Notes: a model not told the origin generated them from the letters alone. A DNA stretch of 64,000 nucleotides from Dehalococcoidales bacterium (GCA_034420195.1 DAOULO010000052.1:323-64322); one strand, 5' to 3'; shown: positions 10,391 through 59,074, counted from the first letter of the stretch. Numbers and translations are program-made.

Positions 10391-10410
10391 GGGGCTACCT
10401 CCTTGCGTTG

Positions 10411-10999: not shown

Positions 11000-11007
11000 T
11001 TTTCTCT

Positions 11008-11076
11008 CCGCCCCACCCCCTCAGAGTAATCTATTCCCACCCAGGCCGCCCCGTATCATCCTCGGCTTAGCCCGCA
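11008..11076 (-). repeat. intergenic repeat, short singlet (tandem with 10930)
   Basis: CTCAGAGTAATCTATTCCCACCCAGGCCGCCCCGTATCATCCTCGGCTTAGCCCGCAA; core at 11026-11042. Confidence 0.85.
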
Positions 11077-11093
11077 ATTTTTACCCCGCCCCG

Positions 11094-20085: not shown

Positions 20086-21726
20086 ATGAAGATTAAATCC
20101 TTTCATATCAGTAATTTTAGAAGTCTTGAAAAACTTGACATGGAAGAAATAGGGGAATTAGTAATCCTGATTGGAGCCAATAGCTCTGGTAAAACCAACG
20201 TTATTGATGCATTGACGCTTTTTTTCAATGAGCTAACACCAGAAATTAGGCATAATATCGGAAGTATCCCGGATTATACATGGTTCGACAGGGATCCATC
20301 AAATCCCGTTATCTTTGATATGGCAATAGAGCTTGAAAAAAGAGAATCTAATGGAATAGTCCCTGTTGATTTGGGGAGTAAGATATCCGAAGGACAAAAC
20401 ACCTTATTGCGAATCATAAGAAAGATCAATGGGCCAGCCGATGCAGCTTTCTGGACAACTGAGTTATTGGAAATTAATGGAGAAATTATTTTTCGCCCTT
20501 CTAGTGAAAAACCCGACGCCGAACCCCCTGAAACAATAGGAATTGCTGGTGAAATTCTCAATAAGCTCACAACAAATGTGAAAGATAAATTTGTCTTTAT
20601 CCCAGCTTCTAGAGATTCAATAGCCACATATGCAGGTTTCACCCAAAGACAAACAATCATTAACTCTACGTTATTAGGTGAATTAAAGAGCATGGCACAA
20701 ACAGGTGCTCGCGATGCGCGAAGAAAATGGCAAAAACTTGAAAGGTTACTGCAAAAAGTCTCGCCTGATGTCTCGGATATGCGTGTTCTTGATGGTGACT
20801 TTAATGTGAGGGAGCAAGACTCAGCTAATCCTTTCCCTGTCCACTGGGTTGGTGGTGGCTATCAGGAGCTTATAATGCTAATCTATCAGCTGATTAAATC
20901 ACCCCATTCTGTATTTGGTATAGATGAACCAGAAATACATTTACACCCTGCTCTTATAAGGGGGTTCTTAGACATATTAAGGGATATTGCTACTGATCAA
21001 CAGTTATTCATCACAACTCATTCTTCTGTGTTAGTAGATCGTTCTGAACTGAAGAATGTTTGGTTGGTAAAAAAAGTAGATGACTCATCGCAGATTACCC
21101 GTTTACAGGATATAGCGGACTTAAAACATGTGACTGTTGAATTAGGAGTCCGTCCGAGTGATATTTTCTGTTCTAATGTAGTTGTGTTTGTTGAAGGACC
21201 ATCAGACAAGATAGTATTTCCTATATTCGCCGAGAAGATAGGCGTCAGTTTCGAAGCAGGCGAAGTCTCGTTTATTCCTATATATGGCAAAGACCAAGGG
21301 AAATATCATTTAAGGACGTTTATTGAATCAACAAAAGCAGCAAATATCCCGTTTTTCATGATTCTGGATAAAGGTGCAGAAAAATCGAAGAGAACCTTCG
21401 TGAAGAATGGACAACTGAAACCCAATGATAACCTATTTTTCCTAAATGAAGGCGATATTGAGGATTATTATAATAGAAATGCACTCATTGATGCTGTTTG
21501 CTCTGAGTATAACATTGAGCCTTCTGCAGAGGAAAAGGAAGAGTTAACAAAAGGCTCAGCTGTTAAGGCTATCGAAGTGTTGCTTAAACAAAAGCTCAAA
21601 ACTGTACCCAAAGGGTGGAAGGCTGTTGTTGGGCAAAAAGCAGCTGAATCTACGGGAGAGGGTGAAATTAAAGAAGATTTAAAAAGAATCATTGAAAGAA
21701 TAGACAGAATAGCAAGCCTTGGATAG
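20086..21726 (+). CDS. ABC/SMC-type ATPase fused to a C-terminal TOPRIM nuclease domain (OLD-family / PARIS AriA-AriB-like / GajA-like)
   Basis: 546 aa. Walker A GANSSGKT (20173-20196), Walker B/D-loop VFGIDEPEIHLHP, H-loop FITTHS. C-terminal VVFVEGPSDKIVF...FFMILDKG TOPRIM-like motifs. Strongly AT-rich: sampled lines are 28-35% GC. Confidence 0.75.
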   Translation: MKIKSFHISNFRSLEKLDMEEIGELVILIGANSSGKTNVIDALTLFFNELTPEIRHNIGSIPDYTWFDRDPSNPVIFDMAIELEKRESNGIVPVDLGSKISEGQNTLLRIIRKINGPADAAFWTTELLEINGEIIFRPSSEKPDAEPPETIGIAGEILNKLTTNVKDKFVFIPASRDSIATYAGFTQRQTIINSTLLGELKSMAQTGARDARRKWQKLERLLQKVSPDVSDMRVLDGDFNVREQDSANPFPVHWVGGGYQELIMLIYQLIKSPHSVFGIDEPEIHLHPALIRGFLDILRDIATDQQLFITTHSSVLVDRSELKNVWLVKKVDDSSQITRLQDIADLKHVTVELGVRPSDIFCSNVVVFVEGPSDKIVFPIFAEKIGVSFEAGEVSFIPIYGKDQGKYHLRTFIESTKAANIPFFMILDKGAEKSKRTFVKNGQLKPNDNLFFLNEGDIEDYYNRNALIDAVCSEYNIEPSAEEKEELTKGSAVKAIEVLLKQKLKTVPKGWKAVVGQKAAESTGEGEIKEDLKRIIERIDRIASLG

Positions 21727-30191: not shown

Positions 30192-31004
30192 ATGTTAGTC
30201 GTCGCCTGCGTCAAGCAAGTCCCGGACACCACCCAGGTCAAGGTAGACCCGGTGACCGGCACCCTTATCCGGGAAGGCGTCCCCTTCATCATGAACCCCT
30301 ACGATACCCACGCCCTCGAGGAGAGCCTGCGTCTTAAAGATAAATACGGCTTCCGTGTGGCCGTCATCTCCATGGGCCCGCCCAGCGCCGAGGTTACCCT
30401 GCGCAAGACCCAGGCCCTGGGCGCCGACGCGGCCATTCTCCTCTCCGACCGTGTCTTCGGCGGGGCCGATACCCTGGCCACCAGCAAGGTGCTCACCGAG
30501 GCCATCCGCAAGCTGGCGCAAAAAGAAGAATTGGCCGCCGTCATCTGCGGCCGCCAGACCATCGACGGCGATACCGCCCAGGTGGGCCCCGGCATCGCCA
30601 CGCGGCTGGGCTGCACCCAGCTGACCCTGGTCGACCGCATCGAGGCGGTGGACGTGAAAGCCAAGACCATCAAAGTCCGGCGCAAGCTGGAAGGGCGGCA
30701 CGAAATCGTTGAGGCGCCCCTGCCGGCCATGGTGGCCGTGCTGCGCGAAATCAACACCCCCCGCTACCCCACCGTGCCGATGCGCTTGTTCGCTGAGGAC
30801 GCCGCCATCACCCTCTGGGATAATAAGGCGATGGGCATTGACGAGCAGCTCATTGGCCTCAAGGGATCGGCGACACAGGTACGCAAGATATTCTCGCCGG
30901 AGCGCGCCAAGGGCGAAATCATCGGCCACGAGACCGATAAGCCCGAGGACGTCGCCCGCTCCTTAATCGAGAGAATGATAGAAAAGGACTTGCTGTCCTT
31001 ATAA
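30192..31004 (+). CDS. etfB: electron transfer flavoprotein, beta subunit
   Basis: MLVVACVKQVPDT N-terminus; 270 aa. Confidence 0.9.
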   Translation: MLVVACVKQVPDTTQVKVDPVTGTLIREGVPFIMNPYDTHALEESLRLKDKYGFRVAVISMGPPSAEVTLRKTQALGADAAILLSDRVFGGADTLATSKVLTEAIRKLAQKEELAAVICGRQTIDGDTAQVGPGIATRLGCTQLTLVDRIEAVDVKAKTIKVRRKLEGRHEIVEAPLPAMVAVLREINTPRYPTVPMRLFAEDAAITLWDNKAMGIDEQLIGLKGSATQVRKIFSPERAKGEIIGHETDKPEDVARSLIERMIEKDLLSL

Positions 31005-31027
31005 AGAAAGGATAAGACCCGCTTTCA

Positions 31028-32368
31028 ATGGCAGAGCCTCAGAAGATGAAGCGACCCCGCGGCGAGGCCCGGCTGATACCCGGCAAGTGCATCGCCTGCG
31101 GCGCCCGCTGCGAGAGCGAGTGCCCCAAGGGCGCTATCACCATGAACGAGAAGGGCGAGCCCATCATCAACCTGGAGCTCTGCACCCGCTGCCGCCGCTG
31201 CGTCAAGGTCTGCCCCGCCGAGGCCCTCGAGATTTACTACACCCCGGAGGAGCAGAAAATCCTCGACGAGTTGGCCAAGCAGAAGGCCGCCGCCCCGGCA
31301 CCGGAGGCCGAGGCCGCCAAGCCCGACCCCCGTCTGGAGAAGCTCAAGGAATATAAGGGCGTCTGGGTCTTCATCGAGCACACCGAGGGCCAGCCCGCCG
31401 GGGTCTCCTGGGAGCTATTAGGTGTCGGTGCCGAGCTGGCTAAGAAGCGCGGCGTCGAGCTCTGCTCCGTCTGCATCGGCGACAAGGTGGAACACCTCGC
31501 CAAGGAGGCCTTCGCCTACGGGGCGGCCAAGGTCTATCTCGTCGACGACCCCGTCTTTCATTATTACCGCACCGAATCGTATTACAAGGCCTGCTGCCAC
31601 CTGGTGGAGAAATACAAGCCGGAGATTGTCCTCATCGGGGCCACCGGGCTGGGCCGCGACCTGGCCGGGGCTATCGCCACCAGCCTCCAGACCGGCCTCA
31701 CCGCCGACTGCACCGGCCTGGCCATCGACGACGCGGGCTTTCTGTTACAGACGCGCCCGGCCTTCGGCGGCAACATCATGGCCACCATTTTGACCGAGTA
31801 CACCCGCCCCCAGATGGCCACGGTGCGCCCCCACGTCATGCCGCTGCCCCCCCGCGACGACAAGCTCAAGGGCGAGATTATCCGCGAGACCGTCCCCGTC
31901 AAGGAAAAGGACGTCGCCGCCAAGGTGCTGGAAATCATCGCGGACGAGAAGCTGGAGGCCGTTGACGTAGCGGCGGCGGAGATTATTATCTCCGGCGGGC
32001 GGGGCATGTGCAACGCCGAGAACTACGCCATCCTGCAGGAGCTGGCCGACGAGCTGGGTGGGGCGGTGGCCTGCTCGCGCGCCGCCGTCGAGGCGGGCTG
32101 GATGCCGCTGGAGCGGCAGGTCGGCCAGACGGGCAAGACGGTCAGACCCAAGATTTACATTGCCTGCGGTATTTCCGGGGCTATTCAGCACCTGGTGGGG
32201 ATGCAGGACTCGGACACCATCATCGCCATCAACCGCGATAAGCAGGCCCCCATCTTTGAGGTGGCCACCTTCGGCATCGTCGGCGACCTCTTCCAGGTTG
32301 TTCCGGCCATCACGAATTATGTCCGGGCCTTAAAGGCCAAGAAGGCGGGCGCGGCCGCGGTCAAATAA
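31028..32368 (+). CDS. etfA: electron transfer flavoprotein, alpha subunit with N-terminal 2x[4Fe-4S] ferredoxin domain
   Basis: [13 protein letters not shown] and [12 protein letters not shown] motifs, followed by the EtfA core ([14 protein letters not shown] region). Confidence 0.9.
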
Positions 32369-32389
32369 TGCTGTGAGGAATAAGATATT

Positions 32390-34360
32390 TTGACAGCCAA
32401 CCTAATCGCCTTTATCTGCGTCCTGGTGGTGGCTCTCCTCCTCTTCGGCTGGAATAGCTACCGGCGTTTCGGGCTGATTGCCAGGGGCCGACCGGACAAC
32501 CGGTTCAATGCCATCCCTAAGCGTCTCGGGAACATGCTGTTTTACGCCGTCGGGCAGCGACGGGTGGCTACCAGGAAGTATCTTTTTGGCCTGAACCACG
32601 TTATCTTCCACCTCTTTTTCTGGATTATCGTCATTACCAGCATTGAGATTCTGCTGAGCCACCTGTTTCCGGGCGTCGGTTTCTCCAGTCTGCCGGCCGG
32701 GGCCTATCATGTCCTGGCCTTCATCTTTGACCTGGTCTGGGTTCTCATTCTGGTAAGCATCGTCATTGCCCTGATACGGCGGGCCGCCTTTCGCCCCGCC
32801 CACGTGCTGCCGATAGAGCCTAATGCCTTAATCACCATGGGCTTATTCGTGCTGCTCTTTATCGGCTTTTTTGGAATTCATGCCAGCGAGATTGCCCGGG
32901 GGGTGGAAAGCGCGGCTCAATACATGCCGGTATCCAACTCTATCGCCGATGCTTTATTCCCTAGCACTGCCGCGGCCAATCCGGCCTGGTATACCAACCT
33001 CTTCTGGTGGATTTTCGCCATCACACTGCTTGGTTTCCTCAATTATCTGGCGGTGACCAAGCACATGCATATTGTTACCGCCATTCCTAACTGCTTTTTT
33101 AAGAGCCTGGAAAAGGTTAAGACCCAGCCCCGCGAGGAGTTCAAAAAGGGCCATAGCTTCGGCGTCGGGCAGGTGGAGCAGTTCACCTGGAAGGGGCTGT
33201 TCGACTCCTACGCCTGCACCGATTGCGGGCGCTGCTCGGACGCCTGCCCGGCCACCGCTACCGGCAAGCCCCTGGAGCCGCGCCTGGTCATTCACGATAT
33301 TAAGTTGAACCTGCTGGCCAGCCGGAATAAGGACGGCAAGTCGCCCCTGCCCCTTATCGGCGGGGAGGGCGAAGGCTCCGTCGCCGAAGAAGTGCTCTGG
33401 GAATGCACCACCTGCGGCGCCTGCATGGAGGTCTGCCCCGTCTTCATCGAGCACGTCCCCCGCATCGTGGACATGCGCCGCCACCTGGTGGAGATGAAAG
33501 CCAAGTTCCCCGAAGAACTGCTTACCCTCTTCGAGAACATGGAGCAGCGCTCTAACCCTTGGGGCATCGCCCCGGCGGAGCGCACCAAGTGGGCGGCGGA
33601 TACCGAGGTCAAGCCCTTCGAGGCCGGCCAGACGGAGTACCTCTTCTACGTGGGCTGCGCCGGCGCCTTCGACGCCCGTAACCGCCACACCACCCTCGCC
33701 ATCGCCAGAATAATGGATGCCGCCGGTATCTCCTGGGGCATCCTGGGGCGGGACGAGCCCTGCTGCGGCGACAGCCTGCGCCGCCTGGGTAACGAGTATA
33801 TCTTCGATAAGATGGCGCAGGACAACATCAAGCTGTTCAACGAGAAAGGCGTCACCAAGATTATCACCCAGTGCCCCCACTGCTTTAGCACCTTCAAGAA
33901 CGATTACCAGCAGTACGGGGCGAATTTAGAGGTCGTCCATCACGCCGAGTTGATTGATAATTTAATCCAGCAGGGCCGGCTCAAGCTCAGGCCGCAGGCG
34001 GCGGGCAATATCGTCTTTCACGACTCCTGCTACCTGGGCCGCTACAACCAGATTTACGACGCCCCGCGCCGCGTGCTGGCCGCCGCCACCGGGCAGGCCC
34101 CGGCGGAGATGGCGCGGCGGCGCGCCAGCGGCTTCTGCTGCGGGGCCGGCGGCGGGCGGATGTGGATGGAGGAGCAGGAGGGCACCCTCATCAACGTGGC
34201 CCGTGTCGAGGAGGCCCTGGCCGAGCGGCCGGACGCCGTCTGCGTCGGCTGCCCCTACTGCATGACGATGTTCGAAGACGGCCTCAAGGACAAAGAGGCC
34301 ACCGACAAGGTGTCTGTTTTTGACCTGGCCGAAATCGTGGCCCGGGGGCTGGAGGATTAA
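32390..34360 (+). CDS. membrane-bound Fe-S oxidoreductase (HdrD/GlpC-like with two CCG domains); candidate ETF:quinone oxidoreductase
   Basis: 656 aa with TTG start. About 230-aa N-terminal polytopic membrane domain, CTDCGRCSDACP plus CTTCGACMEVCP ferredoxin motifs, and two Cys-rich CCG-type repeats (YVGCAG...CPHC; HDSCYLGRY...CCGAGGG...GCPYC). Confidence 0.8.
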   Translation: MTANLIAFICVLVVALLLFGWNSYRRFGLIARGRPDNRFNAIPKRLGNMLFYAVGQRRVATRKYLFGLNHVIFHLFFWIIVITSIEILLSHLFPGVGFSSLPAGAYHVLAFIFDLVWVLILVSIVIALIRRAAFRPAHVLPIEPNALITMGLFVLLFIGFFGIHASEIARGVESAAQYMPVSNSIADALFPSTAAANPAWYTNLFWWIFAITLLGFLNYLAVTKHMHIVTAIPNCFFKSLEKVKTQPREEFKKGHSFGVGQVEQFTWKGLFDSYACTDCGRCSDACPATATGKPLEPRLVIHDIKLNLLASRNKDGKSPLPLIGGEGEGSVAEEVLWECTTCGACMEVCPVFIEHVPRIVDMRRHLVEMKAKFPEELLTLFENMEQRSNPWGIAPAERTKWAADTEVKPFEAGQTEYLFYVGCAGAFDARNRHTTLAIARIMDAAGISWGILGRDEPCCGDSLRRLGNEYIFDKMAQDNIKLFNEKGVTKIITQCPHCFSTFKNDYQQYGANLEVVHHAELIDNLIQQGRLKLRPQAAGNIVFHDSCYLGRYNQIYDAPRRVLAAATGQAPAEMARRRASGFCCGAGGGRMWMEEQEGTLINVARVEEALAERPDAVCVGCPYCMTMFEDGLKDKEATDKVSVFDLAEIVARGLED

Positions 34361-34370
34361 GCGGCGGGGC

Positions 34371-34399
34371 TGGACTTATCCCCGGCCCCGTAATATAAT
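34371..34399 (+). promoter_or_regulatory. sigma70-like promoter (TGGACT-N17-TATAAT) for the hydrogenase-metVF operon
   Basis: TGGACT 34371-34376, 17-nt spacer, TATAAT 34394-34399. Implies a 5' leader of about 210 nt. Confidence 0.45.
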
Positions 34400-34618
34400 A
34401 ACGAGTGGGAATATCGCCACAGCCCTGAGGCTAGTGGCTATCTACGCGGTAGCAACACCCCGGCAACATCGCGCCGCGTACTAGTGGGAGCCCGGAACTT
34501 ATTGGAACTCTCTAGCGCGCCAGTCAGCCGCCCGTCCGGTAGGCCCATTTCCTGTTTTGACCAGTGTGAACGGGTCGGCGCGTGAATATCGCCAGAACGA
34601 AGAAAGGAGCTGGACCTG

Positions 34619-35509
34619 ATGGTTAAGGAACTTCCCGTTGTCTACCTCCAAACGGCCGCCTGTAGCGGCTGTGCCGTATCGCTGCTGAACACGGCCAGTC
34701 CCACCATTAAAAACGTCCTCATCGACCAGATTGCCCCCGGCGTGCACATCAACCTGCGCTTCCACCCGGTCATTATGGCCGCCGCCGGCGAGCTGGCCAT
34801 CGAGGCGCTGGAGGGCACCGCCCGGGAGAAAAAGGGCGAGTACGTCCTCGTCGTCGATGGGGCCGTCCCCACCGCCGAGGCCGTTTACGGGGCCGTCGGC
34901 GAGCGCAATGGCCAGCCGGTGACGATGCTGCAGCGGGTTATTGAATTAAGCCAGGACGCCCTGGCCGTCATCGCCCTGGGCACCTGCGCCTCCTTCGGCG
35001 GCATACCGGCGGCCAAGCCCAACCCCACCCAGGCCCAGCCGGTGAGCCAGGTGCTGGCCGGTAAGGGCATCAAGAAGCCACTCATCAACATCCCCGGCTG
35101 CCCGCCCCACCCCGACTGGTTCGTGGGGACGGTGGCGGGGATTATTCTTAATGGCCTGCCCACCGCCGACGACCTGGACGACCTGCTCCGCCCCAAGGCC
35201 TTCTACGGCAAGCTCATCCACGAGAACTGCCCCCGCCGCGCCTACTTCGACGAGGGCAAGTTCGCCCAGAAATTCGGCGACGAGGGCTGCCTCTACGAGC
35301 TGGGCTGCAAGGGGCCCATCACCTACGCCGACTGCCCCCTGCGGCGCTGGAACAGCGGCACCAACTGGGTCATCGGGGCCGGGGCGCCCTGCAACGGCTG
35401 CACCCAGCCCGAATTCCCCGACGACACGGCGCCCTTCTACGAGAAGCTCGTCGACGTGGAGCTGCCCGTGGTCGGTGCCTACTGGGCCAACAAGGAGGAG
35501 AAGAAGTAA
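34619..35509 (+). CDS. [NiFe]-hydrogenase small subunit, no Tat signal (cytoplasmic)
   Basis: CSGC...GTCASFGG...PGCPPHP proximal-cluster Cys, then HENCP, GCLYELGCKGP, DCP and PCNGC (10 Cys + 1 His in total). The N-terminus MVKELPVVYLQ lacks RRxF. Confidence 0.9.
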   Translation: MVKELPVVYLQTAACSGCAVSLLNTASPTIKNVLIDQIAPGVHINLRFHPVIMAAAGELAIEALEGTAREKKGEYVLVVDGAVPTAEAVYGAVGERNGQPVTMLQRVIELSQDALAVIALGTCASFGGIPAAKPNPTQAQPVSQVLAGKGIKKPLINIPGCPPHPDWFVGTVAGIILNGLPTADDLDDLLRPKAFYGKLIHENCPRRAYFDEGKFAQKFGDEGCLYELGCKGPITYADCPLRRWNSGTNWVIGAGAPCNGCTQPEFPDDTAPFYEKLVDVELPVVGAYWANKEEKK

Positions 35510-37068
35510 TGGCCAAAATCGTTATCGACCCCGTGACCCGCATCGAGGGGCATCTCAAGGTGGAGTGTACCGTGGAGAACGGCGTCGTCAAGGACGCCCG
35601 CACCACCGGCAACCTCTTCCGGGGCTTTGAAATCATCCTGCGGGGGCGCGACCCCCGGGATGCCCAGGTAATTACCCAGCGCATCTGCGGCGTCTGCCCC
35701 CAGTCGCACGGCATCGCCGCCGCGCTCAGCCTGGACAGCGCCTTCGGCATTGCCGATAAAGTCCCCGATAACGGCCGCATCATCCGCAACCTCATCCAGG
35801 GGGCGCACATCGCCCAGGACCATGTCCTCCACTTCTACCACCTGGCCGCCCTGGATTACGTCAACGTCGCCGACGTCGCCAAGTACGAAGGCAACGACTC
35901 GCAATTGAACTCGGTCAAGGACTTCATCGCCCGCGGGGCGCTGGGCCCGTTCCTGCCCCGCTACGAGGGCGACTACCGCCTGCCGCCGGAGGTCAACCAG
36001 CAGGCGGTGGCCCACTACGTCAAGGCGCTGGAAATCCGCCGCATCGGCCACGAGGCCGTCGCTATCTTCAGCGGCAAGATTCCCCACAGCGTCGGCGTTG
36101 TCCCTGGCGGCGTCACCAGTGTCCCCACCGCCGACAACATCATGGCCTATATCCGGAAGATAAAAATCCTCCAGGACTTCATCGATAACGTCTATATCCC
36201 CGACGTCCTGGCCGTGGCCGGGGCCTACCTGGACTACGCCGAAATCGGCGTGGGCTGCCGCAACCTCCTCTCCTACGGCAGCTTCGACCTGGAGGGCGGC
36301 AGCCCCGACTATACCCGCCGCGCCCGCCTCTTCAAGCAGGGCACCGTCGGCGCCGACCTCAAGCCCGGCGACCTGGACACTAGCAAGGTTACCGAGCACG
36401 TCAAGCACTCCTGGTACGAGGACGCCACCAGCAACCGCCACCCCTCTAAAGGCGATACCAAACCCCAGTACGGCAAGCCGGGGGCCTACTCCTGGACGAA
36501 GTCGCCGCGCTACGCCGGTAAGGTCTACGAGGTGGGCCCGCTGGCCCGGGTGGCCGTCAACTACGCCAGGGGCGATGCCACGGCCCAGGCGCTGGTCAAC
36601 GACTCGTTGAAAAAGCTCAACGCCCCACCGTCAGTCCTCTTCTCGGTGCTGGGGCGGCACCTGGGGCGGGCGCTCTCGGCCAAGATTATCGCCGACTCGC
36701 TGGGTGGCTGGGCGCTCCAGCTCAAACCGGGCGAGCCGGCCTACGTGGAGTACGAAATCCCCGAGGCGGCGTCCGGCATGGGCCTGACCGATGCCGCCCG
36801 CGGCGCCCTGGGGCACTGGATTGAAATCAAAGACAAAAAGATTGCCAACTATCAGGCGGTGGTACCCACCACCTGGAACGTGGGCCCGAGGGATGATAAG
36901 GGGCAGCCCGGCCCCATCGAGCAGGCTCTCATCGGCACCAAGGTCAAGGACGAGAAAAATCCCTTTGAAGTCGTGCGCATCATCCGCTCCTTCGACCCGT
37001 GCCTGGCCTGCTCCATCCACATGGTCACCCCTAAAGGTCGAGACCTGGGTAAGTTCAGGGTCGTGTAA
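35509..37068 (+). CDS. [NiFe]-hydrogenase large subunit
   Basis: VTRIEGH, RICGVCPQSH (L1) and DPCLACSIH (L2), plus a 15-aa C-terminal extension. ATG overlaps the small-subunit stop (TAATG). Confidence 0.95.
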   Translation: MAKIVIDPVTRIEGHLKVECTVENGVVKDARTTGNLFRGFEIILRGRDPRDAQVITQRICGVCPQSHGIAAALSLDSAFGIADKVPDNGRIIRNLIQGAHIAQDHVLHFYHLAALDYVNVADVAKYEGNDSQLNSVKDFIARGALGPFLPRYEGDYRLPPEVNQQAVAHYVKALEIRRIGHEAVAIFSGKIPHSVGVVPGGVTSVPTADNIMAYIRKIKILQDFIDNVYIPDVLAVAGAYLDYAEIGVGCRNLLSYGSFDLEGGSPDYTRRARLFKQGTVGADLKPGDLDTSKVTEHVKHSWYEDATSNRHPSKGDTKPQYGKPGAYSWTKSPRYAGKVYEVGPLARVAVNYARGDATAQALVNDSLKKLNAPPSVLFSVLGRHLGRALSAKIIADSLGGWALQLKPGEPAYVEYEIPEAASGMGLTDAARGALGHWIEIKDKKIANYQAVVPTTWNVGPRDDKGQPGPIEQALIGTKVKDEKNPFEVVRIIRSFDPCLACSIHMVTPKGRDLGKFRVV

Positions 37069-37082
37069 GCAAAGGAGGCCAG

Positions 37083-37769
37083 ATGATATTATCAGAGCCA
37101 AAACCGTTTGAAGAAGTCCTGGGTTATCTCCAAGGCGAAAAGAGCGTCTTTGTCCTGGGCTGCAACGGCTGCGCCCAGTCCTCGGGCAGCGGCGGCCCGG
37201 CGCAGGTGGCCGAAATGAAGCAGAAGCTGGAAGCCGCCGGTAAGAAGGTCACCGGCACCAAGGTCATCGACTTTCTCTGTGAGAAGGCCCTGGTCAAGAG
37301 CGGCCTGCGCGGCCGAGTGGATGAAGTTAAGGCCGCCGATTCCATCCTGGTAATGACCTGCGGTATCGGCGTCCAGGCAGTGGCCGCCGCCCTCAACAAG
37401 GTCTGCCACCCCGCCTGCAATACCGTCAACCTGGGCGGCAGCCGCGGCGAGTGGCCGGGCAGCGAGCGCTGCTACGAGTGCGGCCAGTGCCTGCTGGACT
37501 ATACCGGCGGTATCTGCCCCCTCACCGCCTGCACCAAGAGCCTGGTCAGCGGCGCCTGCGGCGGGGCCAACCACGGCAAGTGCGAGCTTTCGCCGGACAA
37601 GGACTGCGGCTGGGAGCTCATCTACGACCGTCTCAAGGCCAAGGGCCAGCTCGACAAGCTCCAGGTTGCCCTCGACCCACTCGACCAGGGCAAGCTGTCG
37701 GCCCGGCCGGAGATGCTGGCCACCTCCCGCTACGCGCTGGAGAGTCATGACCAGGAGGTGAAAGCGTGA
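37083..37769 (+). CDS. metV: methylene-tetrahydrofolate reductase C-terminal-domain protein (MetV, Fe-S/zinc-finger subunit)
   Basis: CYECGQCLLDYTGGICPLTACTKSLVSGACGG...GKCEL...DCGW pattern typical of MTHFR_C/MetV. Confidence 0.8.
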   Translation: MILSEPKPFEEVLGYLQGEKSVFVLGCNGCAQSSGSGGPAQVAEMKQKLEAAGKKVTGTKVIDFLCEKALVKSGLRGRVDEVKAADSILVMTCGIGVQAVAAALNKVCHPACNTVNLGGSRGEWPGSERCYECGQCLLDYTGGICPLTACTKSLVSGACGGANHGKCELSPDKDCGWELIYDRLKAKGQLDKLQVALDPLDQGKLSARPEMLATSRYALESHDQEVKA

Positions 37770-38647
37770 GCCTGCAATCGAAACTGGAATCGGGGAAGTT
37801 CGCCATATCCTGCGAGTTCGGCCCGCTCAAGGGCACCGATACCAACGAGATTAAAGAGAACATCGAGGTCCTCCGGGGCAAGGTCGACGCCGCCAACGTC
37901 ACCGACCAGCAGAGTTCGGTGATGCGCCTGGGGTCGCTGGTGACCTCCTACCTGGCCGTCGCCGGGGGGCTGGAGCCCATCTTCCAGATGACCTGCCGCG
38001 ACCGTAACCGCATCGCTTTGCAGTCCGACCTGCTCGGCGCCTGGGTGCTGGGCATCAAGAATGTCCTGGCCCTCACCGGCGACCTGCCGCAGCTGGGCGA
38101 CCACCCCGAGGCCAAGGCCGTCTTCGACCTGGACTCGGTCACTCTGCTCAAGGCCATCAGCCGCCTCAACGAGGGCTACGACCTGGCCGGCAATGAGCTG
38201 ATAGGTAAGCCCGCCTTCTACCCCGGGGCGGTGGTCAAGGTGGAGTCCAACACCGAGGCCGCCACCGAGCTCCAGATTGCCAAGATGCAGCGCAAGATAG
38301 CCGCCGGGGCCAAGTTCTTCCAGACCCAGGCCGTCTACGACGCCAAATCGTTCGGTAAGTTTATGAAGCGGGTGGAGAAGTTCAAGGTGCCCGTCATGGC
38401 CGGTATCATCCCCCTCAAGAACGCCGGTATGGCCCGCTACATGAACGCCAACGTGGCCGGCGTGCACGTGCCGGACGATCTCATCCAGAAGATGGCCGAC
38501 GCCACCAAGGAAGACCGCGAAAATACCGGCATCCAGATTGCCGCCGACCTTATCAAGCAGGTTAAGCCCCTCTGCCAGGGGGTGCATATCATGGCCATCA
38601 ATTGGGAGAAGAAGGTGCCGGACATCATCCAGGCCGCCGGACTCTAA
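37766..38647 (+). CDS. metF: 5,10-methylenetetrahydrofolate reductase
   Basis: 293 aa, acetogen-type MetF (ANVTDQ..., TCRDRNR, ALTGD, FFQTQ motifs). 4-nt overlap with metV. Confidence 0.9.
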   Translation: MSLQSKLESGKFAISCEFGPLKGTDTNEIKENIEVLRGKVDAANVTDQQSSVMRLGSLVTSYLAVAGGLEPIFQMTCRDRNRIALQSDLLGAWVLGIKNVLALTGDLPQLGDHPEAKAVFDLDSVTLLKAISRLNEGYDLAGNELIGKPAFYPGAVVKVESNTEAATELQIAKMQRKIAAGAKFFQTQAVYDAKSFGKFMKRVEKFKVPVMAGIIPLKNAGMARYMNANVAGVHVPDDLIQKMADATKEDRENTGIQIAADLIKQVKPLCQGVHIMAINWEKKVPDIIQAAGL

Positions 38648-38670
38648 GCCTAAATTAAGATAGAATACGA

Positions 38671-38709
38671 ATCCCCGGTGTTTTTACGGGCGCCGGGGAT
38701 TTTTCTTTA
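38671..38709 (+). terminator. rho-independent terminator after metF
   Basis: ATCCCCGGTG / CGCCGGGGAT 10-bp stem (one G-U pair), 10-nt loop, then TTTTTCTTT. Confidence 0.8.
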
Positions 38710-38727
38710 TCCTCCAATGTCATAGAA

Positions 38728-38829: not shown

Positions 38830-39033
38830 ATGGGTAAGTTAAAAATAGACGGTTGTCCCAAATGCGGCCGGGGTGTGATTACCCTGGATAAAGACGAATA
38901 CGGGTGGTACGAGTACTGCCTGCAGTGCGGCTATACGCACGACCTGGTATCCATGACCGAGCCGGCGGCGCGGCTGGAAGCGGCCAAGACGGCCGTAGAG
39001 CTGCCCGGCCGCGATAAGCCGAACCGGCGCTAA
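38830..39033 (+). CDS. small zinc-ribbon protein
   Basis: 67 aa; CPKCGRG...CLQCGY. Confidence 0.6.
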   Translation: MGKLKIDGCPKCGRGVITLDKDEYGWYEYCLQCGYTHDLVSMTEPAARLEAAKTAVELPGRDKPNRR

Positions 39034-39051
39034 AGGGGAGAATGATGAGCT

Positions 39052-39576
39052 GTGCTGGCAGGTAAGAGAGTCGCCATCCTGGCCGAGGACGACTTCGAGG
39101 ACACCGAGCTGACCGAACCGTTGCGCTCGATGAAGGGCGCCGGTGCCAGGGTGATTGTCGTCGGCAGCGGCTCCCGGGCAACCTATCATGGCAAAAGGGG
39201 TGTGGCTACCGTGAATGTCGATGCCGAAGCCGGAAGGGTGGCGCCCGGGGACTTCGACGCCGTCATTATCCCCGGCGGCCAGGCCCCGGAGAAGATGCGC
39301 CTGTACCCGGAGATGGTCAATCTGGTGCGGCAGGCCCACGAGGCCGGTAAGGTGCTGGCGGCCATCTGTCACGGGCCGCAGCTGCTTATTTCTGCCGGTA
39401 TCGTCAGGGGGCGGCGGGTCACTTCCTGGCCTCCCCTGGCGGTTGACCTCCGCAACGCCGGGGCCGAGTGGGTAGACCTGCCGGTGGTGGTGGACGGCAA
39501 TCTCGTCACGTCGCGCAAGCCCGCCGACCTGCCGCGCTTCAACAAGGCTGTCATCGAGTTGCTGCGCAGCCGCTAG
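39052..39576 (+). CDS. DJ-1/PfpI-family protein (intracellular protease/deglycase type)
   Basis: AAICHGPQLL nucleophile elbow and EDTEL motif. GTG start. Confidence 0.85.
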   Translation: MLAGKRVAILAEDDFEDTELTEPLRSMKGAGARVIVVGSGSRATYHGKRGVATVNVDAEAGRVAPGDFDAVIIPGGQAPEKMRLYPEMVNLVRQAHEAGKVLAAICHGPQLLISAGIVRGRRVTSWPPLAVDLRNAGAEWVDLPVVVDGNLVTSRKPADLPRFNKAVIELLRSR

Positions 39577-39581
39577 TAAGG

Positions 39582-40289
39582 ATGGATGACATGGTAACGG
39601 AAACGCCAGCCCCCGTCAAAACAGTGAGTACGGAGTTGCTCAGGTGCAGCCCTTACTTCGCCGGGTTCGACGAGACCGTCCTGGCGGAGATAGCCCGGCG
39701 GATGAAGCCCCGGCCGGCGGCCCGCCACGAGATCCTCTGGCTGGAGCAGGAACCGGCCGAGACGGTGTACTTCGTGGCCCGCGGGCTCGTCAAGCTGTTC
39801 AAGACCTCCCCCGGCGGCAAGGAGCAGATACTGCGGCTGGTCTATCCCGGCGACTGCTTCGGTCACGCCGGGGCCTTTAACGGGGGCCATCACCCGGAGA
39901 GTGCCCAGGCCCTGGTGGATACCACCCTTTACGGCATCAGCAAAAGTGACCTGGGTGTCCTGCTTACCGAGTACCCGGAGCTAGCCGGCAACATCATCAA
40001 GGCCTTGGCGACGGAGATGCACCACTATATATCCCTGGTCGAAGACCTTTCGCTGCGCCGTGTCCGCAGCCGGCTGGCCCGCCTGCTGCTGGACCAGGGC
40101 GACCGGGGTATCGGTAATACGTCGCTGATGCTCACCCGGGCGGATCTGGCGGCCATGGCCGGGACGGTGCGGGAGGTCATCGGCAAGTCGCTCAAGTCGC
40201 TGGAGGACAGCGGCGCCATCCGCTACGACCGCCGCAACATCGTTATCCGCGACCGGGAAGCTCTCAAGGCCATTATGCGCTCGGCCTAG
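39582..40289 (+). CDS. Crp/Fnr-family transcriptional regulator
   Basis: cNMP-binding-like beta-roll (YFVARGLVKLFK) plus a C-terminal HTH (TRADLAAMAGTVREVIGKSLKSLED). Start at ATG 39582, not 39468. Confidence 0.85.
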   Translation: MDDMVTETPAPVKTVSTELLRCSPYFAGFDETVLAEIARRMKPRPAARHEILWLEQEPAETVYFVARGLVKLFKTSPGGKEQILRLVYPGDCFGHAGAFNGGHHPESAQALVDTTLYGISKSDLGVLLTEYPELAGNIIKALATEMHHYISLVEDLSLRRVRSRLARLLLDQGDRGIGNTSLMLTRADLAAMAGTVREVIGKSLKSLEDSGAIRYDRRNIVIRDREALKAIMRSA

Positions 40290-54346: not shown

Positions 54347-55053
54347 CCAAGTTTCAGGGTTTTCCCACCCGGATGGAGTTCACCGCCGTCCCCAATCTCT
54401 TCTTCAGCGGCCTGCTCCCCCACGTCGACGACCTGGCCGAGCTGAAGACGACGCTGGCCGTCATCGCCGCCATTTATCGTAAAAAAGGCTCACCGCGCTA
54501 CGTGAGCTTGAGCGAGCTTAGGGGCGACGCCGCCCTGATGCAAGGACTTAAAAGTATCGGGAAAGAGCCGGAGGCGACGCTGGAGGCAGCTTTGAAAATG
54601 GCGGTGGGGCGGGGCACGCTGCTCCGCCTGGGACTGGAGGGGAAAGACGGCGCCGAGGAAGTCTATTTCCTCAACGACGCGCCGGGTAGGCAGGCGGTAG
54701 CTAAAATTGAAAGCGGGGAGATTAAGCTCGGCGGGATGAAGGCGGTGCGGCCGGTAGAAACGACCGGGGAGCCGCCGGATATCTTCACCCTTTATGAGGA
54801 GAACATCGGCCTGCTGACGCCAATGGTGGCCGACGAGCTAAAACTGACCGAAAAGACCTATCCCGCCGCCTGGCTGCGCGATGCCATCAAAGAAGCGGTT
54901 TTACATAACAAGAGAAACATCAGGTATATCACCAAGATTTTAGAGAACTGGTCGGCGGAAGGCCGGAGCGATGGAACACATCAGCGAGATACTCAAAAGG
55001 CAGACCCGGACAAGTACATCAAAGGCAAATACGGGCACATGGTCCGCCGCTGA
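54343..55053 (+). CDS. dnaD: DnaD-domain replication initiation/primosome protein
   Basis: C-terminal FTLYEENIGLLTPMVADEL...IKEAVLHNKRNIRYITKILENW matches the DnaD/DnaB_2 domain. ATG 54343 overlaps the dnaB stop (ATGA); the upstream part of track ORF 54067 is rejected. Confidence 0.75.
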   Translation: MTKFQGFPTRMEFTAVPNLFFSGLLPHVDDLAELKTTLAVIAAIYRKKGSPRYVSLSELRGDAALMQGLKSIGKEPEATLEAALKMAVGRGTLLRLGLEGKDGAEEVYFLNDAPGRQAVAKIESGEIKLGGMKAVRPVETTGEPPDIFTLYEENIGLLTPMVADELKLTEKTYPAAWLRDAIKEAVLHNKRNIRYITKILENWSAEGRSDGTHQRDTQKADPDKYIKGKYGHMVRR

Positions 55054-56386
55054 GGCGGACGAAGCGCCCCCCGCCTCCCCGGAATGCCCCGTCTGCAAGG
55101 GGGCCGGTATCGTGCATCCCCGCCTGCCCTCCGGCGAGCCGGACTACAGCCGGGCCGTCCCCTGCCGCTGCACCAAAAAAGAGCAGAAGGGCGAGCGCCA
55201 GGAGCGGCTGAAACGCTACAGCAATCTTGGCTCCTTGGTGCGCTTTACCTTCGCCAATCTGGAGCCGCGCGGCAAGAGCGGCCATCCCCGCGCCCAGGAG
55301 CAGTTCCAGCGCGCCTGCGAGGCCGCCAAGGCCTTCGCCAGCGAACCCAAAGGCTGGCTGGTGCTGGGCGGCCCCAGCGGCAGCGGCAAGACCCACCTGG
55401 CGGCGGCCATCGTCAACGAGACCATCAGCCGGGGCCAGCCGGCCCTGTATATCACCGCCCCCGACCTGCTCGACCGCCTGCGCGCCTCCTTTGGCCCTGA
55501 CAGCGAGACCCCCTACGACGAGTTCTTCGAATCGGTGCGCGCCGCCCCTCTGCTCGTCCTCGACGACCTGGGGGCGCAGTCGGGCACGCCCTGGGCGCGC
55601 GAGAAGCTCGACCAGCTACTGACCTCGCGCTTCAACAGCGAGCTGCCGACGGTCATCGTCACCGTTAAGCCCGTTGAGGAGATGGAAGAGCGGCTGCGCA
55701 CCCGCCTCACCGACCCGCGCCTCTCGCAGGTATACATCCTCGAAGAAGATAAACCCACCGAGGAGTACGCCTGGGGGCCTGAGTTCGCCCTGCAGAAGGG
55801 GATGACCTTCGCCAGCTTCGACCGGCGACGTAACCTGCCCCCGGAGCAGCAGGAGAACCTGGACTGGGCGCTGGAGGCCGCCCTGAATTTCGCCAAGAAC
55901 CCGGAGGGATGGCTGGTGTTTATGGGCTTTACCGGCAGCGGCAAGACCCACCTGGCGGCGGCCATCGTCAACTACCGCTACGAAGCCGGCCAGCCCGCCC
56001 TCTTCGTGGTGGTGCCTGAGTTCCTCGACCACCTGCGCTCCACCTTCGGCCCGGAGAGCAAGGTCTCCTACGACGAGCTTTTCGAGAGCGTCAAGACGGC
56101 GCCGCTATTGGTGCTGGACGACTTCGGCGAGCAGTCCACCACGCCCTGGGCCAAGGAGAAGCTCTACCAGGTGCTCAACTACCGCTATAACGGGCGGCTG
56201 CCCACGGTGATTACCACCCGGCACTCGCTGGATGAAATCATCGAGAAGTTCGATAGCCCGGTCTCTTCGCGGCTGGCCGATAAGAGCATCAGTGTGCCTT
56301 TCAACATCACCGCGCCCGATTACCGCAGCGACGTGACCCACAACCGCAAGAAGACTTCTTCCAGCCGGAAGAGCAAGAGGTATTAG
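54971..56386 (+). CDS. helicase-loader ATPase with two tandem DnaC/DnaI-type AAA+ modules and an N-terminal Cys4 element
   Basis: Module 1 (about 55223-55744): GGPSGSGKTHLAAAIVN...LLVLDDLG. Module 2 (about 55802-56305): GFTGSGKTHLAAAIVN...LLVLDDFG. N-terminal CPVCKGAG...CRC. The only ATG start overlaps dnaD by 83 nt. Confidence 0.8.
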   Translation: MEHISEILKRQTRTSTSKANTGTWSAAEADEAPPASPECPVCKGAGIVHPRLPSGEPDYSRAVPCRCTKKEQKGERQERLKRYSNLGSLVRFTFANLEPRGKSGHPRAQEQFQRACEAAKAFASEPKGWLVLGGPSGSGKTHLAAAIVNETISRGQPALYITAPDLLDRLRASFGPDSETPYDEFFESVRAAPLLVLDDLGAQSGTPWAREKLDQLLTSRFNSELPTVIVTVKPVEEMEERLRTRLTDPRLSQVYILEEDKPTEEYAWGPEFALQKGMTFASFDRRRNLPPEQQENLDWALEAALNFAKNPEGWLVFMGFTGSGKTHLAAAIVNYRYEAGQPALFVVVPEFLDHLRSTFGPESKVSYDELFESVKTAPLLVLDDFGEQSTTPWAKEKLYQVLNYRYNGRLPTVITTRHSLDEIIEKFDSPVSSRLADKSISVPFNITAPDYRSDVTHNRKKTSSSRKSKRY

Positions 56387-56481: not shown

Positions 56482-57144
56482 CTATCCCTTCCCCTCTTTG
56501 AAAGAGAGCGCCCCGGTCGGGCAGGCCGCCACGCAGACGCTGCAGTCCAGGCAGCGCTCCGCCCCGATGGGCTCGTCGCCGAAGGTGGTCAGCCGCCGCT
56601 CGAAGCCGCGGTGGGCGAACCCCAGCACACCGGACTTTATATCCCGCCGGCAGGCCCAGACGCAGCGCCCGCAGAGGACGCACTTGTTGGGGTCGTAGGT
56701 GAAGAGGGGGTTGGAGTCGTCCACGGGCAGTTCCCGCAGCAGGACGCGGAATTGCTTTGGCTTGAGCTTGCAGCCGAGGACTTGAGCAATCTTCTGTAGC
56801 TCGCATTTTTTATTGGCCGGGCAGTGGGCGCAGTCCAGCGCGTGCGAGGCCATGAGCAGGTCGAAGCCGGTGCGGGCCAGCGCCAGGGCCCTTTCGCCGC
56901 GCGTGTTGACCACCATGCCTTCGCTGACGGTCGCGGTGCAGGCGGTCACCGGTGCTTCCTTCCCGGCTATCTCCACGAAGCAAAGGCGGCAGGAGGCGCT
57001 CGGCTCGGGCTTATCGGCGATATGGCAGAGGTTGGGGATGTAGATACCGTTGGCCAGCGCCGCCGCCAGGACACTCGTGCCCGCGGGCGCGGTGACTTTC
57101 TTCCCGTCGATGGTAAGCGTTATGGTCTCTTTATTTACCGTCAT
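56482..57144 (-). CDS. Fe-S protein resembling only the N-terminal part of NuoG/HydA ([2Fe-2S] + His-ligated and 2x[4Fe-4S]); no catalytic domain
   Basis: 220 aa; TIDGKKVTA...CRLCFVEI...C (2Fe-2S), HALDCAHCPANKKC, CVLCGRCVWAC, CLDCSVCVAACP. Ends directly after the last cluster. Confidence 0.8.
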   Translation of the reverse strand: MTVNKETITLTIDGKKVTAPAGTSVLAAALANGIYIPNLCHIADKPEPSASCRLCFVEIAGKEAPVTACTATVSEGMVVNTRGERALALARTGFDLLMASHALDCAHCPANKKCELQKIAQVLGCKLKPKQFRVLLRELPVDDSNPLFTYDPNKCVLCGRCVWACRRDIKSGVLGFAHRGFERRLTTFGDEPIGAERCLDCSVCVAACPTGALSFKEGKG

Positions 57145-57145
57145 A

Positions 57146-59074
57146 TCACTGTTTTGACTTTTGAGCCTTGACCTTTGAGCCGTTATCCGGCACCTCGCTG
57201 GGCGGCGAGAATTTCATAATGGCGTTATACTGCGGCGGGCAGGCGGCCAGGCAGGTGCCGCACTTGACGCATTTCTCCGGGTCGATGACCTTGATGCGCT
57301 TTTTGTTCGGCGAGATGGCCTCGACGGTGCAGGAGCCGACGCAGGCGTCGCAGGAGCGCTCGCACTTATCGGGCAGGATGTAGTAGGCGATGAGGTGCAG
57401 GCACATCAGGGCCGGGCAGCGCCCCAGCTCGATGTGCTCGCGGTACTCGTCGCGGAAGTAGCGCAGGGTGGTGAGGATGGGGTTGGGGGCCGTCGCGCCG
57501 AACTGGCAGAGCGAGCCGGCCTTGACGTCGGCGGCCAGCTTTTCCAGCGTGTCCAGGTCTTCTATTTTGCCCTGCCCCTGGGTGAATTCGGTGAGGGTCT
57601 CCAGCATCTGCTTGGTGCCCAGGCGGCAGAAGGTGCACTTGCCGCAGGACTCGCGCTGGGTGAACTCCAGGAAATAGCGGGCGATTTCTACCATGCAGTC
57701 GTCCTCGTCGAGCACGACCATGCCGCCGGAGCCCATCATCGCCCCGGCTTCCCGCAGCGACTGGAAATCGACGGGTAAATCCAGGGCGCTTTCGGGCAGG
57801 CAGCCGCCGGAGGGCCCGCCGATTTGCACCGCCTTGAACTTTTTACCCTTGGGGATGCCGCTGCCCGCCTCGAAGATAATCTGCCGCAGGGTGGTGCCCA
57901 TGGGCACCTCCACCAGCCCGGTATTGACTACCTTGCCGGCCAGGGCGAAGACGGCCGTGCCGGGGCTCTCCGGCGTGCCGATGCCTTTAAACCATACTGC
58001 CCCCCGCCCGATGATGTGGCGCACGTAGGCCAGCGTCTTGACGTTATTAACGACGGTGGGCTGGCCGTCGAGGCCGCGTGTGGCCGGGTAGGGCGGGCGG
58101 TGGCGGGGCATGCCCGACCGGCCTTCCAACGAGGCGATGAGGGCCGTCTCCTCGCCGCAGACGAAGGCCCCCGAGCCCTGAAAGAGCGTAATATCAAAGC
58201 TGAAATCCGTCCCCAGGATATTTTCGCCCAGTAGGTTGAGCTTTTCGGCCTGTTCAAGGGCCGTTTCCAGCCTCTCGACCGCTAAGGGGTACTCGGCGCG
58301 GACGTAGATGTAGCCCTGGCGCGCCCCGACAGCGTAAGCGGCGATGATAATCCCCTCGATGACGGAGTGGGGGTCGCTCTCCAGGATGGCGCGGTCCATG
58401 AAGGCGCCGGGGTCGCCTTCGTCGGCGTTGCAGACAATGTACCGGGTATGACCGGGGGCCTCGCGGCAGGTCTGCCATTTCTGGCCGGTGGGGAAACCGG
58501 CCCCGCCCCGGCCGCGTAATCCGGAGTCGGCGACTTCCTTAATAACGGTTTCCGGGGTCGTGTCGAGGGCCTTGGCTAAAGACTCGTAGCCCCCGGTGGC
58601 GATGGCGTGCTCGATATCCGTCGGGTCAATGTGGCCGCAGTTAGCCAGGATGATTTTTTGCTCGTACTGGGCGCGGGGGAAGTCGCCGAAGCTGGGCAGG
58701 AGGTCGTTGGCCTCCAGCGCCGCCAGGACGAACTCGGGGCATGGGTTATCGCCCAGGATGAACTCCTTGACCAATCGCTCGGCGATGACGGGGTTGACGT
58801 AGCCGTAGGCTATCGGCGGGTAGCCGGGCTTGGCGATGATAACGAGGGGCTCAGCGTAGCAGTGGCCGATGCAGCCCACCTCAATGACGGGCACGTCCAG
58901 TTCGCGCTTCTTTATTTCGTCGCGGAAGGCAGCCAGCACCTCTAGGGCCCCGGCGGCCCGCCCGCAGGTGGCGGCCCCCACCATGACCACCGTCCCGTCA
59001 CGGCTCGCTGGCCAGCGGGCCACGGCGTGCTCCTTAAGCGCCGCAAAGGCGGCCGCCGCTTTAGCCTGCTTCAC
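57146..59074 (-). CDS. NuoF/HydB-like NAD(P)H-binding flavoprotein with N-terminal thioredoxin-like and C-terminal 2x[4Fe-4S] domains
   Basis: 642 aa; GRGGAGFPTGQKW (FMN/NADH), SCGKCTFCR (N3 cluster), and C-terminal CDACVGSC...CVKCGTCLAACP. Confidence 0.88.
   Translation of the reverse strand: MKQAKAAAAFAALKEHAVARWPASRDGTVVMVGAATCGRAAGALEVLAAFRDEIKKRELDVPVIEVGCIGHCYAEPLVIIAKPGYPPIAYGYVNPVIAERLVKEFILGDNPCPEFVLAALEANDLLPSFGDFPRAQYEQKIILANCGHIDPTDIEHAIATGGYESLAKALDTTPETVIKEVADSGLRGRGGAGFPTGQKWQTCREAPGHTRYIVCNADEGDPGAFMDRAILESDPHSVIEGIIIAAYAVGARQGYIYVRAEYPLAVERLETALEQAEKLNLLGENILGTDFSFDITLFQGSGAFVCGEETALIASLEGRSGMPRHRPPYPATRGLDGQPTVVNNVKTLAYVRHIIGRGAVWFKGIGTPESPGTAVFALAGKVVNTGLVEVPMGTTLRQIIFEAGSGIPKGKKFKAVQIGGPSGGCLPESALDLPVDFQSLREAGAMMGSGGMVVLDEDDCMVEIARYFLEFTQRESCGKCTFCRLGTKQMLETLTEFTQGQGKIEDLDTLEKLAADVKAGSLCQFGATAPNPILTTLRYFRDEYREHIELGRCPALMCLHLIAYYILPDKCERSCDACVGSCTVEAISPNKKRIKVIDPEKCVKCGTCLAACPPQYNAIMKFSPPSEVPDNGSKVKAQKSKQ

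Follow-up and report, generated by a model that had tools for sequence, protein, structure and literature searches.

The electron donor of methylene-tetrahydrofolate (methylene-THF) reductase, together with the conservation of energy at this very exergonic step, is a long-standing question in acetogens. In the hydrogen-dependent CO2 reductase (HDCR) of Acetobacterium woodii and Thermoanaerobacter kivui, a hydrogenase is wired via Fe-S subunits to a reductase of the Wood-Ljungdahl pathway, with no soluble carriers. MetFV-type methylene-THF reductases are supplied by reduced ferredoxin in Clostridium ljungdahlii and by NADH in the MetFV-RnfC2 enzyme of A. woodii, and the enzymes of M. thermoacetica and Sporomusa ovata are MetFV-HdrABC-MvhD; for methylene-THF reduction, the C. 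ljungdahlii MetFV takes electrons from reduced ferredoxin or viologen dyes but not from NAD(P)H (PMC8515935). Reduction of methylene-THF driven by H2 is otherwise known only via periplasmic hydrogenases and quinones in S. ovata, where cytochrome b-bound enzymes feed quinone and then a membrane-attached MetFV-HdrABC-MvhD (PMC9430772). Here, we report on hydS-hydL-metV-metF, an operon that joins genes for a [NiFe] hydrogenase to those for a MetFV-type reductase, in a 64,000-nucleotide stretch of DNA from a Dehalococcoidales bacterium (GCA_034420195.1, DAOULO010000052.1:323-64322; 62% G+C), hereafter called the window, to which coordinates refer. Named near-identical homologues bear the labels Dehalococcoidales, Dehalococcoidia, or Chloroflexota. 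We think it somewhat probable that the operon encodes a cytoplasmic four-subunit H2:methylene-THF oxidoreductase.

The idea of a hydrogenase-MetVF pairing is not new, because adjacency has already been noted in three genome papers. [NiFe] hydrogenase genes lie around a second metF in 'Candidatus (Ca.) Syntrophonatronum acetioxidans' (PMC6295475, 2018), signal-less [NiFe] subunits adjoin methylene-THF reductase genes in 'Ca. Contubernalis alkaliaceticus' (PMC10608574, 2023), and in Ca. Bipolaricaulia a HysAB assigned to group 1a (HydDB) lies beside MetVF and was proposed as the electron source for methylene-THF reduction (PMC11287216, 2024). A first-pass annotation of the window, made by a model from the sequence, had not recognized the arrangement as a described one, which was an overstatement. 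By their descriptions, the three published adjacencies are the same neighborhood, but they are one- or two-sentence genome annotations in other phyla, with no survey, no association between loss of the twin-arginine translocation (Tat) signal and metVF, and no biochemistry. A Bipolaricaulia locus from the scan described below (L068) falls in the window's clade. Phrase searches of the literature found no description of an H2-dependent methylene-THF reductase, and the system is uncharacterized. New here are the breadth of the pairing, the complete association of Tat loss with metVF, and the nesting of the genes among those for hydrogenase maturation.

Linkage of hydrogenase and metVF genes

An alignment of HydL was scanned against one genome per species, and the best 80 of 593 confirmed matches (54 to 87% identity) were taken as loci for analysis with tblastn and open reading frame (ORF) scripts. 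Lineage labels are those of the record titles; all linked loci come from metagenome-assembled genomes and none from isolates. Among the Tat-less loci with enough downstream sequence, metV lay within 5 kb of hydL in 61 of 61, usually with metF next (order, hydS-hydL-(hycI)-metV-metF), and five apparent exceptions were contigs that ended too early. By contrast, metVF was found in none of the 17 Tat-bearing relatives, all of which have a clear S/TRRxFLK signal. Their small subunits are longer (326 to 418 amino acids [aa] in complete ORFs), and 16 of the 17 have another gene order (hydL, protease, hydS). The synteny on which the first-pass annotation had staked its proposal is thus present in every Tat-less locus that could be evaluated.

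Linked loci carry about a dozen phylum-level labels in all, among them Dehalococcoidia, Anaerolineae, Actinomycetota, Desulfobacteraceae, Desulfotignum, Bipolaricaulia, Pirellulales, Phycisphaerae, Spirochaetota, Aerophobetes, Poribacteria, Fraserbacteria, and others. Pairwise distances of HydS and of HydL track those of MetV (Pearson r = 0.82 to 0.84), which indicates that the hydrogenase and MetV genes were inherited together. A neighbor-joining tree was rough and midpoint-rooted and was not relied on for the ancestral or derived status of the Tat-less state.

Gene context points the same way in many of these genomes. Two metagenomic contigs with HydL 78 to 79% identical have the same four genes, in one case within a folD-cdhD-CODH-ACS-acsC-acsE cluster and in the other beside nickel-related genes. 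The module often lies within Wood-Ljungdahl clusters of acs, acsC, acsE, folD, fhs, and formate dehydrogenase genes (e.g., L002 and L030), and its recurring neighbors are CODH/ACS subunits, acsE, folD, fhs, a 1354-aa formate dehydrogenase fusion, cooC-like ATPases, and DUF3786. In many loci, hydL and metV are ~500 nt apart, and the interval is then a hydrogenase maturation protease gene (PF01750). Locus L044 reads hydS-hydL-metV-metF-hycI-hypB-hypF, followed by three ORFs that are hypCDE by position only, and this order puts metVF inside a hydrogenase operon. Family-wide conservation is limited to hydS, hydL, metV, and metF, with hycI present in some loci and absent from others, and does not extend to accessory genes. 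A functional link between the hydrogenase and MetVF is strongly supported by such genomic evidence.

Variants of the module were also seen. In L036 (7673-11359), L055 (9964-13878), L033, and L039, the hydL-metV interval holds genes for a cyclic nucleotide monophosphate-binding histidine kinase and two response regulators, as well as a second, divergent methylene-THF reductase-like gene (~40% identical to MetF); in L055, hycI follows hydL. Locus L030 (10059-12478) has tandem MetV paralogues of 216 and 248 aa (the second confirmed by PF12225) and then a divergent MetF. This divergent MetF subtype (39 to 43% identical) occurs in nine linked loci in all (L021, L028, L030, L032, L034, L037, L042, L047, and L054).

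Operon layout and subunits

Features of the operon and of the genes immediately upstream are collected in Table 1. The first-pass annotation described four co-directional genes with tight junctions between a promoter-like element and a strong terminator, and all of these were recovered as claimed. The hydS/hydL junction is TAATG (1-nt overlap), the hydL/metV junction is a 14-nt gap with AGGAGG inside, and the metV/metF junction is GTGA (4-nt overlap); the four genes are translationally coupled. In an alignment of upstream regions, the −35 and −10 of the promoter-like site occupy the same position in relatives L005 and L008, and the hydS ribosome-binding site AGAAAGGAG is invariant in six of six regions aligned. 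Because these signals are kept in relatives and the genes are bounded by the promoter-like site and the terminator, hydSL-metVF is probably its own transcription unit.

Table 1. Coordinates of the hydSL-metVF operon, its predicted signals, and the adjoining upstream operon
Feature	Position	Strand	Notes
etfB, etfA, CCG membrane protein operon, possibly associated	30192..34360	+	Immediately upstream of the hydS operon
Sigma-70-like promoter, hydSL-metVF operon	34371..34399	+	TGGACT, 17 nt, TATAAT; 10/12 consensus positions matched
Putative 5' untranslated region, ~210 nt	34400..34618	+	Ribosome-binding site AAAGGAG at 34603-34609
hydS, [NiFe] hydrogenase small subunit, 296 aa	34619..35509	+	PF01058, PF14720, TIGR00391; without Tat signal
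hydL, [NiFe] hydrogenase large subunit, 519 aa	35509..37068	+	PF00374, 538 bits; NF033181, 723 bits (cutoff 600)
metV, Cys-rich Fe-S subunit of MetFV-type methylene-THF reductase, 228 aa	37083..37769	+	PF12225
metF, flavin-binding methylene-THF reductase catalytic subunit, 293 aa	37766..38647	+	PF02219, 150.7 bits; GTG start
Intrinsic terminator, operon end	38669..38712 (scan match 38669-38702)	+	15-bp stem, 7 G-C pairs, 4-nt loop, then T run

Directly 3' of the stop codon of the CCG gene lies a G+C-rich hairpin (34361-34392), which overlaps the hydS −35 and has no T run; it could be a terminator or attenuator between the CCG operon and the hydS operon. A riboswitch-type element in the 258-nt leader was considered and is unsupported: Rfam gave no credible match (the sole match was a viral element at 21.8 bits; gathering score, 70), and the stability of the folded leader was not unusual (z = +0.74).

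HydS scored 268.7 bits against TIGR00391 (cutoff, 179.5) and lacks a C-terminal membrane anchor. The protein begins MVKELPVVYLQ at the first possible start codon past an in-frame stop, 9 nt downstream of AAAGGAG, and an alignment pairs its residue 3 with residue 6 of the mature small subunit of the periplasmic Desulfomicrobium [NiFeSe] enzyme. Since there is no room upstream of the start and the alignment runs almost to the mature N terminus, a Tat signal is impossible, and the hydrogenase should therefore be cytoplasmic, as the first-pass annotation had argued. A periplasmic location by hitchhiking was ruled out, as no Tat-bearing partner is encoded and the substrates of MetVF are cytoplasmic.

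The full ligand set claimed earlier for HydS, 10 Cys and 1 His, was likewise found (C15, C18, C123, and C161; H201, C204, C224, and C230; C239, C258, and C261). It covers a proximal, a medial, and a His-ligated distal Fe-S cluster, and nine of the Cys ligands and H201 are invariant in 60 homologues, with C15 at 98%. Position 251 (~35369-35371) is Val in the window but Cys in 41 of the 60 linked homologues and in [NiFeSe] enzymes, so the medial cluster of the window enzyme would have three Cys ligands. Val or Ile replaces the Cys fourth ligand of this cluster throughout the window's HydS subclade, and for this reason the clade seems to alternate between [4Fe-4S]-type and [3Fe-4S]-type medial clusters. 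The nearest solved structures for HydS are [NiFeSe] small subunits (4KL8_S and 1CC1_S; ~262 bits).

HydL has the Ni-Fe CxxC motifs RICGVC (58-63) and DPCLAC (496-501), the latter within DPCLACSIH (496-504), and all of 58 homologues keep C60, C63, C498, and C501. Among solved structures, HydL matches periplasmic group 1a [NiFeSe] enzymes best, with group 1b just behind (450 versus 436 bits); the structures matched were Desulfomicrobium baculatum 1CC1/4KL8, Desulfovibrio vulgaris 2WPN/5JSU, and D. fructosovorans 1FRF. An identification as a [NiFeSe] enzyme (HysAB) was ruled out, since the active-site DPCLAC has Cys rather than selenocysteine and scores against the NCBIfam HysA/HysB models were below cutoff (NF045518, 553 bits, cutoff 780; NF045520, 318 bits, cutoff 470).

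Past DPCLACSIH, HydL has the C-terminal extension noted in the first-pass annotation, a tail of 15 aa, and tblastn bore out the accompanying remark that maturation genes are missing nearby (no hyp or HycI homologue in the 64-kb window). The tail is kept by nearly all members outside one subclade (L002 [10001-11515], L010, L011, and L012), in which HydL has 504 aa and ends at the His of DPCxxCxxH, so that a maturation protease would not be needed.

Lack of the extension in that subclade resembles regulatory hydrogenases, and HydSL might then be an H2 sensor that controls Wood-Ljungdahl gene expression rather than a catalytic donor, an idea raised in PMC6295475. Histidine kinase and response-regulator genes are indeed near the module in 11 to 12 loci, standing between hydL and metV in L036, L039, and L055. 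Most loci, the window included, nevertheless lack a nearby kinase, members as a rule have the 15-aa extension and a dedicated HycI protease, the sequence is nearest to catalytic group 1a/1b enzymes, and metVF are probably co-transcribed partners and not distant targets; we therefore hold a sensor role to be extremely unlikely.

MetV has 11 invariant Cys, with C93 at 88%, in 60 hydrogenase-linked homologues, and MetV is reported to bind two [4Fe-4S] clusters (PMC8515935). No solved MetV structure was found by sequence, and a monomer prediction from 31 close homologues was too poor for a fold search (pLDDT, 51; pTM, 0.49). The N terminus of MetF, MSLQSKLESGKF, is similar to MSLRSKLEAGKF of the L001 homologue.

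Electron path, coupling, and direction

In the reading that we favor, H2 would be split at the Ni-Fe site of HydL and electrons would move through HydS by way of its proximal, medial, and distal Fe-S clusters. HydS would dock on MetV, which would take the place of the cytochrome c3 or cytochrome b partner of periplasmic group 1 enzymes, and electrons would enter the MetV Fe-S clusters, go on to the MetF flavin, and reach methylene-THF; NAD(P)H or soluble ferredoxin would not be required. We infer that the proteins form a physical complex, that electrons go from HydS to MetV, which way the reaction runs, and that no energy coupling occurs. Natural fusions among the 150 best MetV representatives comprise MetV-RnfC, ferredoxin-MetV, MetV-Rieske, and MetV-MetF, and the first three of these indicate that electron-input modules attach to MetV.

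The fusion proteins and some odd chimeras are P0298, P0352, P0373, P0290, P0372, P0254, and P0251, with a Nuo51 FMN domain in MetV-RnfC; two chimeras, one joined to a cation ATPase and one to Lnt, probably reflect errors of gene calling.

Several observations weigh against direct transfer from HydS to MetV. Soluble reduced ferredoxin serves purified MetFV enzymes (PMC8515935), which leaves room for an intervening carrier, and no fusion of a hydrogenase subunit (HydS) to MetV was present among the same 150 representatives. Literature searches found neither biochemical work on a hydrogenase-MetVF module nor a systematic survey of it. A direct reaction would also waste energy that other acetogens are thought to conserve here. 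Finally, NuoE/NuoF-like genes, a second MetV paralogue, or sensor-kinase/response-regulator genes stand in or beside the module in some lineages, and these accessory genes, together with the Etf/CCG operon upstream in the window, mean that the complex may be larger or regulated differently.

Use of a carrier and the missing Rosetta-stone fusion would both suit a hydrogenase and MetVF that are co-expressed, not joined, with soluble ferredoxin or flavodoxin between them as in C. ljungdahlii, where MetFV uses reduced ferredoxin with a Km of ~1.5 µM (PMC8515935); operon membership by itself is no proof of a complex. We judge this distinctly unlikely, however, given the strict adjacency and order over about a dozen phylum labels, the position of metVF between hydL and the maturation genes in L044, the lack of a ferredoxin gene conserved in the module, and the poor performance of H2 at low partial pressure as a ferredoxin reductant. 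Moreover, group 1-type hydrogenases normally have a dedicated protein partner that docks at the distal cluster.

The first-pass annotation also held that no acceptor subunit follows the hydrogenase. This is correct for the hydSL-metVF operon itself, in which no acceptor gene lies downstream (no cytochrome b, cytochrome c3, or HybA-type partner) and no hdrABC/mvhD or rnfC-like gene was found, but it needs qualification for the Etf/CCG operon immediately upstream, a separate operon that holds the sole CCG protein. The etfA product has an N-terminal two-[4Fe-4S] ferredoxin domain, and the CCG protein (656 aa) is a membrane protein with 4Fe-4S and two CCG (HdrD-like) domains. This trio is directly upstream of hydS in L003, L005, L008, and L009, the four closest species-representative loci reaching far enough, and stands near hydS in another arrangement, with hdrA and flpD, in L001; it is absent from the wider hydSL-metVF family.

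HydSL-MetVF could accordingly be pictured as the core of a larger energy-coupled complex (bifurcating, confurcating, or membrane-tied), for which candidate extra subunits are EtfAB with the membrane CCG protein from the upstream operon, NuoEF-like modules, or HdrA/MvhD; in that case, the energy available from H2 to methylene-THF would not be lost. Besides the Etf/CCG genes, this is favored by NuoE/NuoF-like genes flanking the module in 9 to 11 other loci (e.g., L030), by a nuoE/nuoF/Fe-S cluster in the window (56482-59594), and by the multi-module complexes of M. thermoacetica and S. ovata (PMC8515935, PMC9430772). The accessory genes are, however, not conserved family-wide, a conserved promoter stands between the Etf/CCG genes and hydS, and many loci (e.g., L016, L073, and L075) have no such neighbor, and we regard coupling of this kind as rather unlikely.

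Standard potentials (E0') are −414 mV for H2 and −200 mV for methylene-/methyl-THF. Calculated from standard potentials, reduction of methylene-THF by H2 would yield ~−41 kJ/mol under standard conditions and ~−18 kJ/mol at 10 Pa H2, in agreement with the earlier statement that the reaction is downhill. The reverse reaction, H2 release from methyl-THF at equal substrate ratios, would require H2 below ~0.006 Pa, and uptake is therefore the likelier direction.

Operation mainly in reverse, with methyl-THF oxidized and H2 released during syntrophic acetate or methyl-group oxidation, is the role suggested for the homologous genes of two haloalkaliphilic acetate oxidizers, 'Ca. Syntrophonatronum acetioxidans' (PMC6295475) and 'Ca. 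Contubernalis alkaliaceticus' (PMC10608574), and [NiFe] enzymes are reversible in principle. The H2 pressure needed is nonetheless far under syntrophic levels (and stricter still at high pH, by calculation), the nearest characterized hydrogenases are uptake enzymes, and many of the lineages that carry the module are inferred acetogens, such as Bipolaricaulia (PMC11287216). Reverse operation as the main function thus seems very unlikely.

H2-driven reduction of methylene-THF by HydSL-MetVF, if correct, leads to a broader claim, whose parts we hold jointly and regard as evenly poised between right and wrong. HydSL-MetVF would be a self-contained cytoplasmic hydrogen-dependent methylene-THF reductase, a fifth type and a widespread one; it would have originated from a group 1 [NiFe] hydrogenase that lost its Tat signal and took MetV as redox partner; uncultured acetogen-like lineages from about a dozen phyla, in sediments and the subsurface, would carry out this step mainly by this route; the methylene-THF step would thereby stay feasible where H2 is very low; and, after HDCR, this would be a second example of direct wiring of H2 into the Wood-Ljungdahl pathway.

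Recurrence of the module in about a dozen phyla suggests that H2 may directly drive one step of CO2 fixation. A hydrogenase in the same operon offers a concrete and testable answer to the donor question for uncultured Dehalococcoidia, Bipolaricaulia, Aerophobetes, Planctomycetota, and others. Among group 1-type [NiFe] hydrogenases, it would be the first whose partner is cytoplasmic and not a cytochrome; it would also bear on the H2 thresholds of subsurface communities and on their carbon fixation, and could supply a compact H2-driven C1-reduction module for engineering.

Neighboring genes and comparison with known systems

Past the terminator (38830-40289) are a zinc-ribbon-like ORF of 67 aa with weak Lar/CPCC matches, a gene for a DJ-1/PfpI protein, and one for a CRP/FNR-family regulator. 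The last of these (39468-40289) is the regulator gene nearest to the operon, in or beside which there is no kinase; the regulator's longest ORF overlaps the DJ-1 gene, so the true start is probably further downstream. The cluster at 56482-59594, on the minus strand, encodes a NuoE-like protein (PF01257), a 642-aa NuoF-like protein (PF01512), and a 220-aa 2Fe-2S/4Fe-4S protein, and looks like an NADH-linked electron-input module without an adjoining catalytic partner. An IstB/DnaA-like AAA ATPase with a ResIII-like region (54971-56386) and a 546-aa ORF with an AAA/OLD-type ATPase-like N terminus (20086-21726) may be mobile-element or defense genes.

HydSL resembles periplasmic group 1a/1b [NiFe]/[NiFeSe] enzymes in its small/large heterodimer, Ni-Fe CxxC motifs, putatively cleavable large-subunit C-terminal tail, and three Fe-S clusters with a His-ligated distal one. 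Unlike periplasmic group 1 enzymes, the window HydS has no Tat signal, and genes for MetV-MetF, not for a cytochrome c3 or b partner, follow. It differs from [NiFeSe] enzymes in having Cys for selenocysteine in HydL and Val at HydS 251 with a three-Cys medial cluster, and from the regulatory H2-sensing hydrogenase (group 2b) in having the 15-aa HydL extension and no adjoining histidine kinase.

With acetogen MetFV-type reductases, the window operon shares the metV-metF pair, a Cys-rich MetV, a flavin-binding MetF, and a place in the Wood-Ljungdahl pathway's methyl branch (PMC8515935), as well as, in principle, attachment of the electron-input module via MetV. The input module, however, would be a group 1-type [NiFe] hydrogenase instead of RnfC, Hdr/MvhD, or a free carrier, and the operon has no gene for an NAD(P)H-binding subunit.

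The likeness to HDCR would be one of concept, a hydrogenase wired directly to a Wood-Ljungdahl enzyme. HDCR consists of an [FeFe] hydrogenase, formate dehydrogenase, and HycB-type subunits; the two systems share no homologous component and would serve different pathway steps. H2, the electron donor for methylene-THF reduction in S. ovata, is the proposed donor here too, but the window system would be all cytoplasmic and is encoded in one operon.

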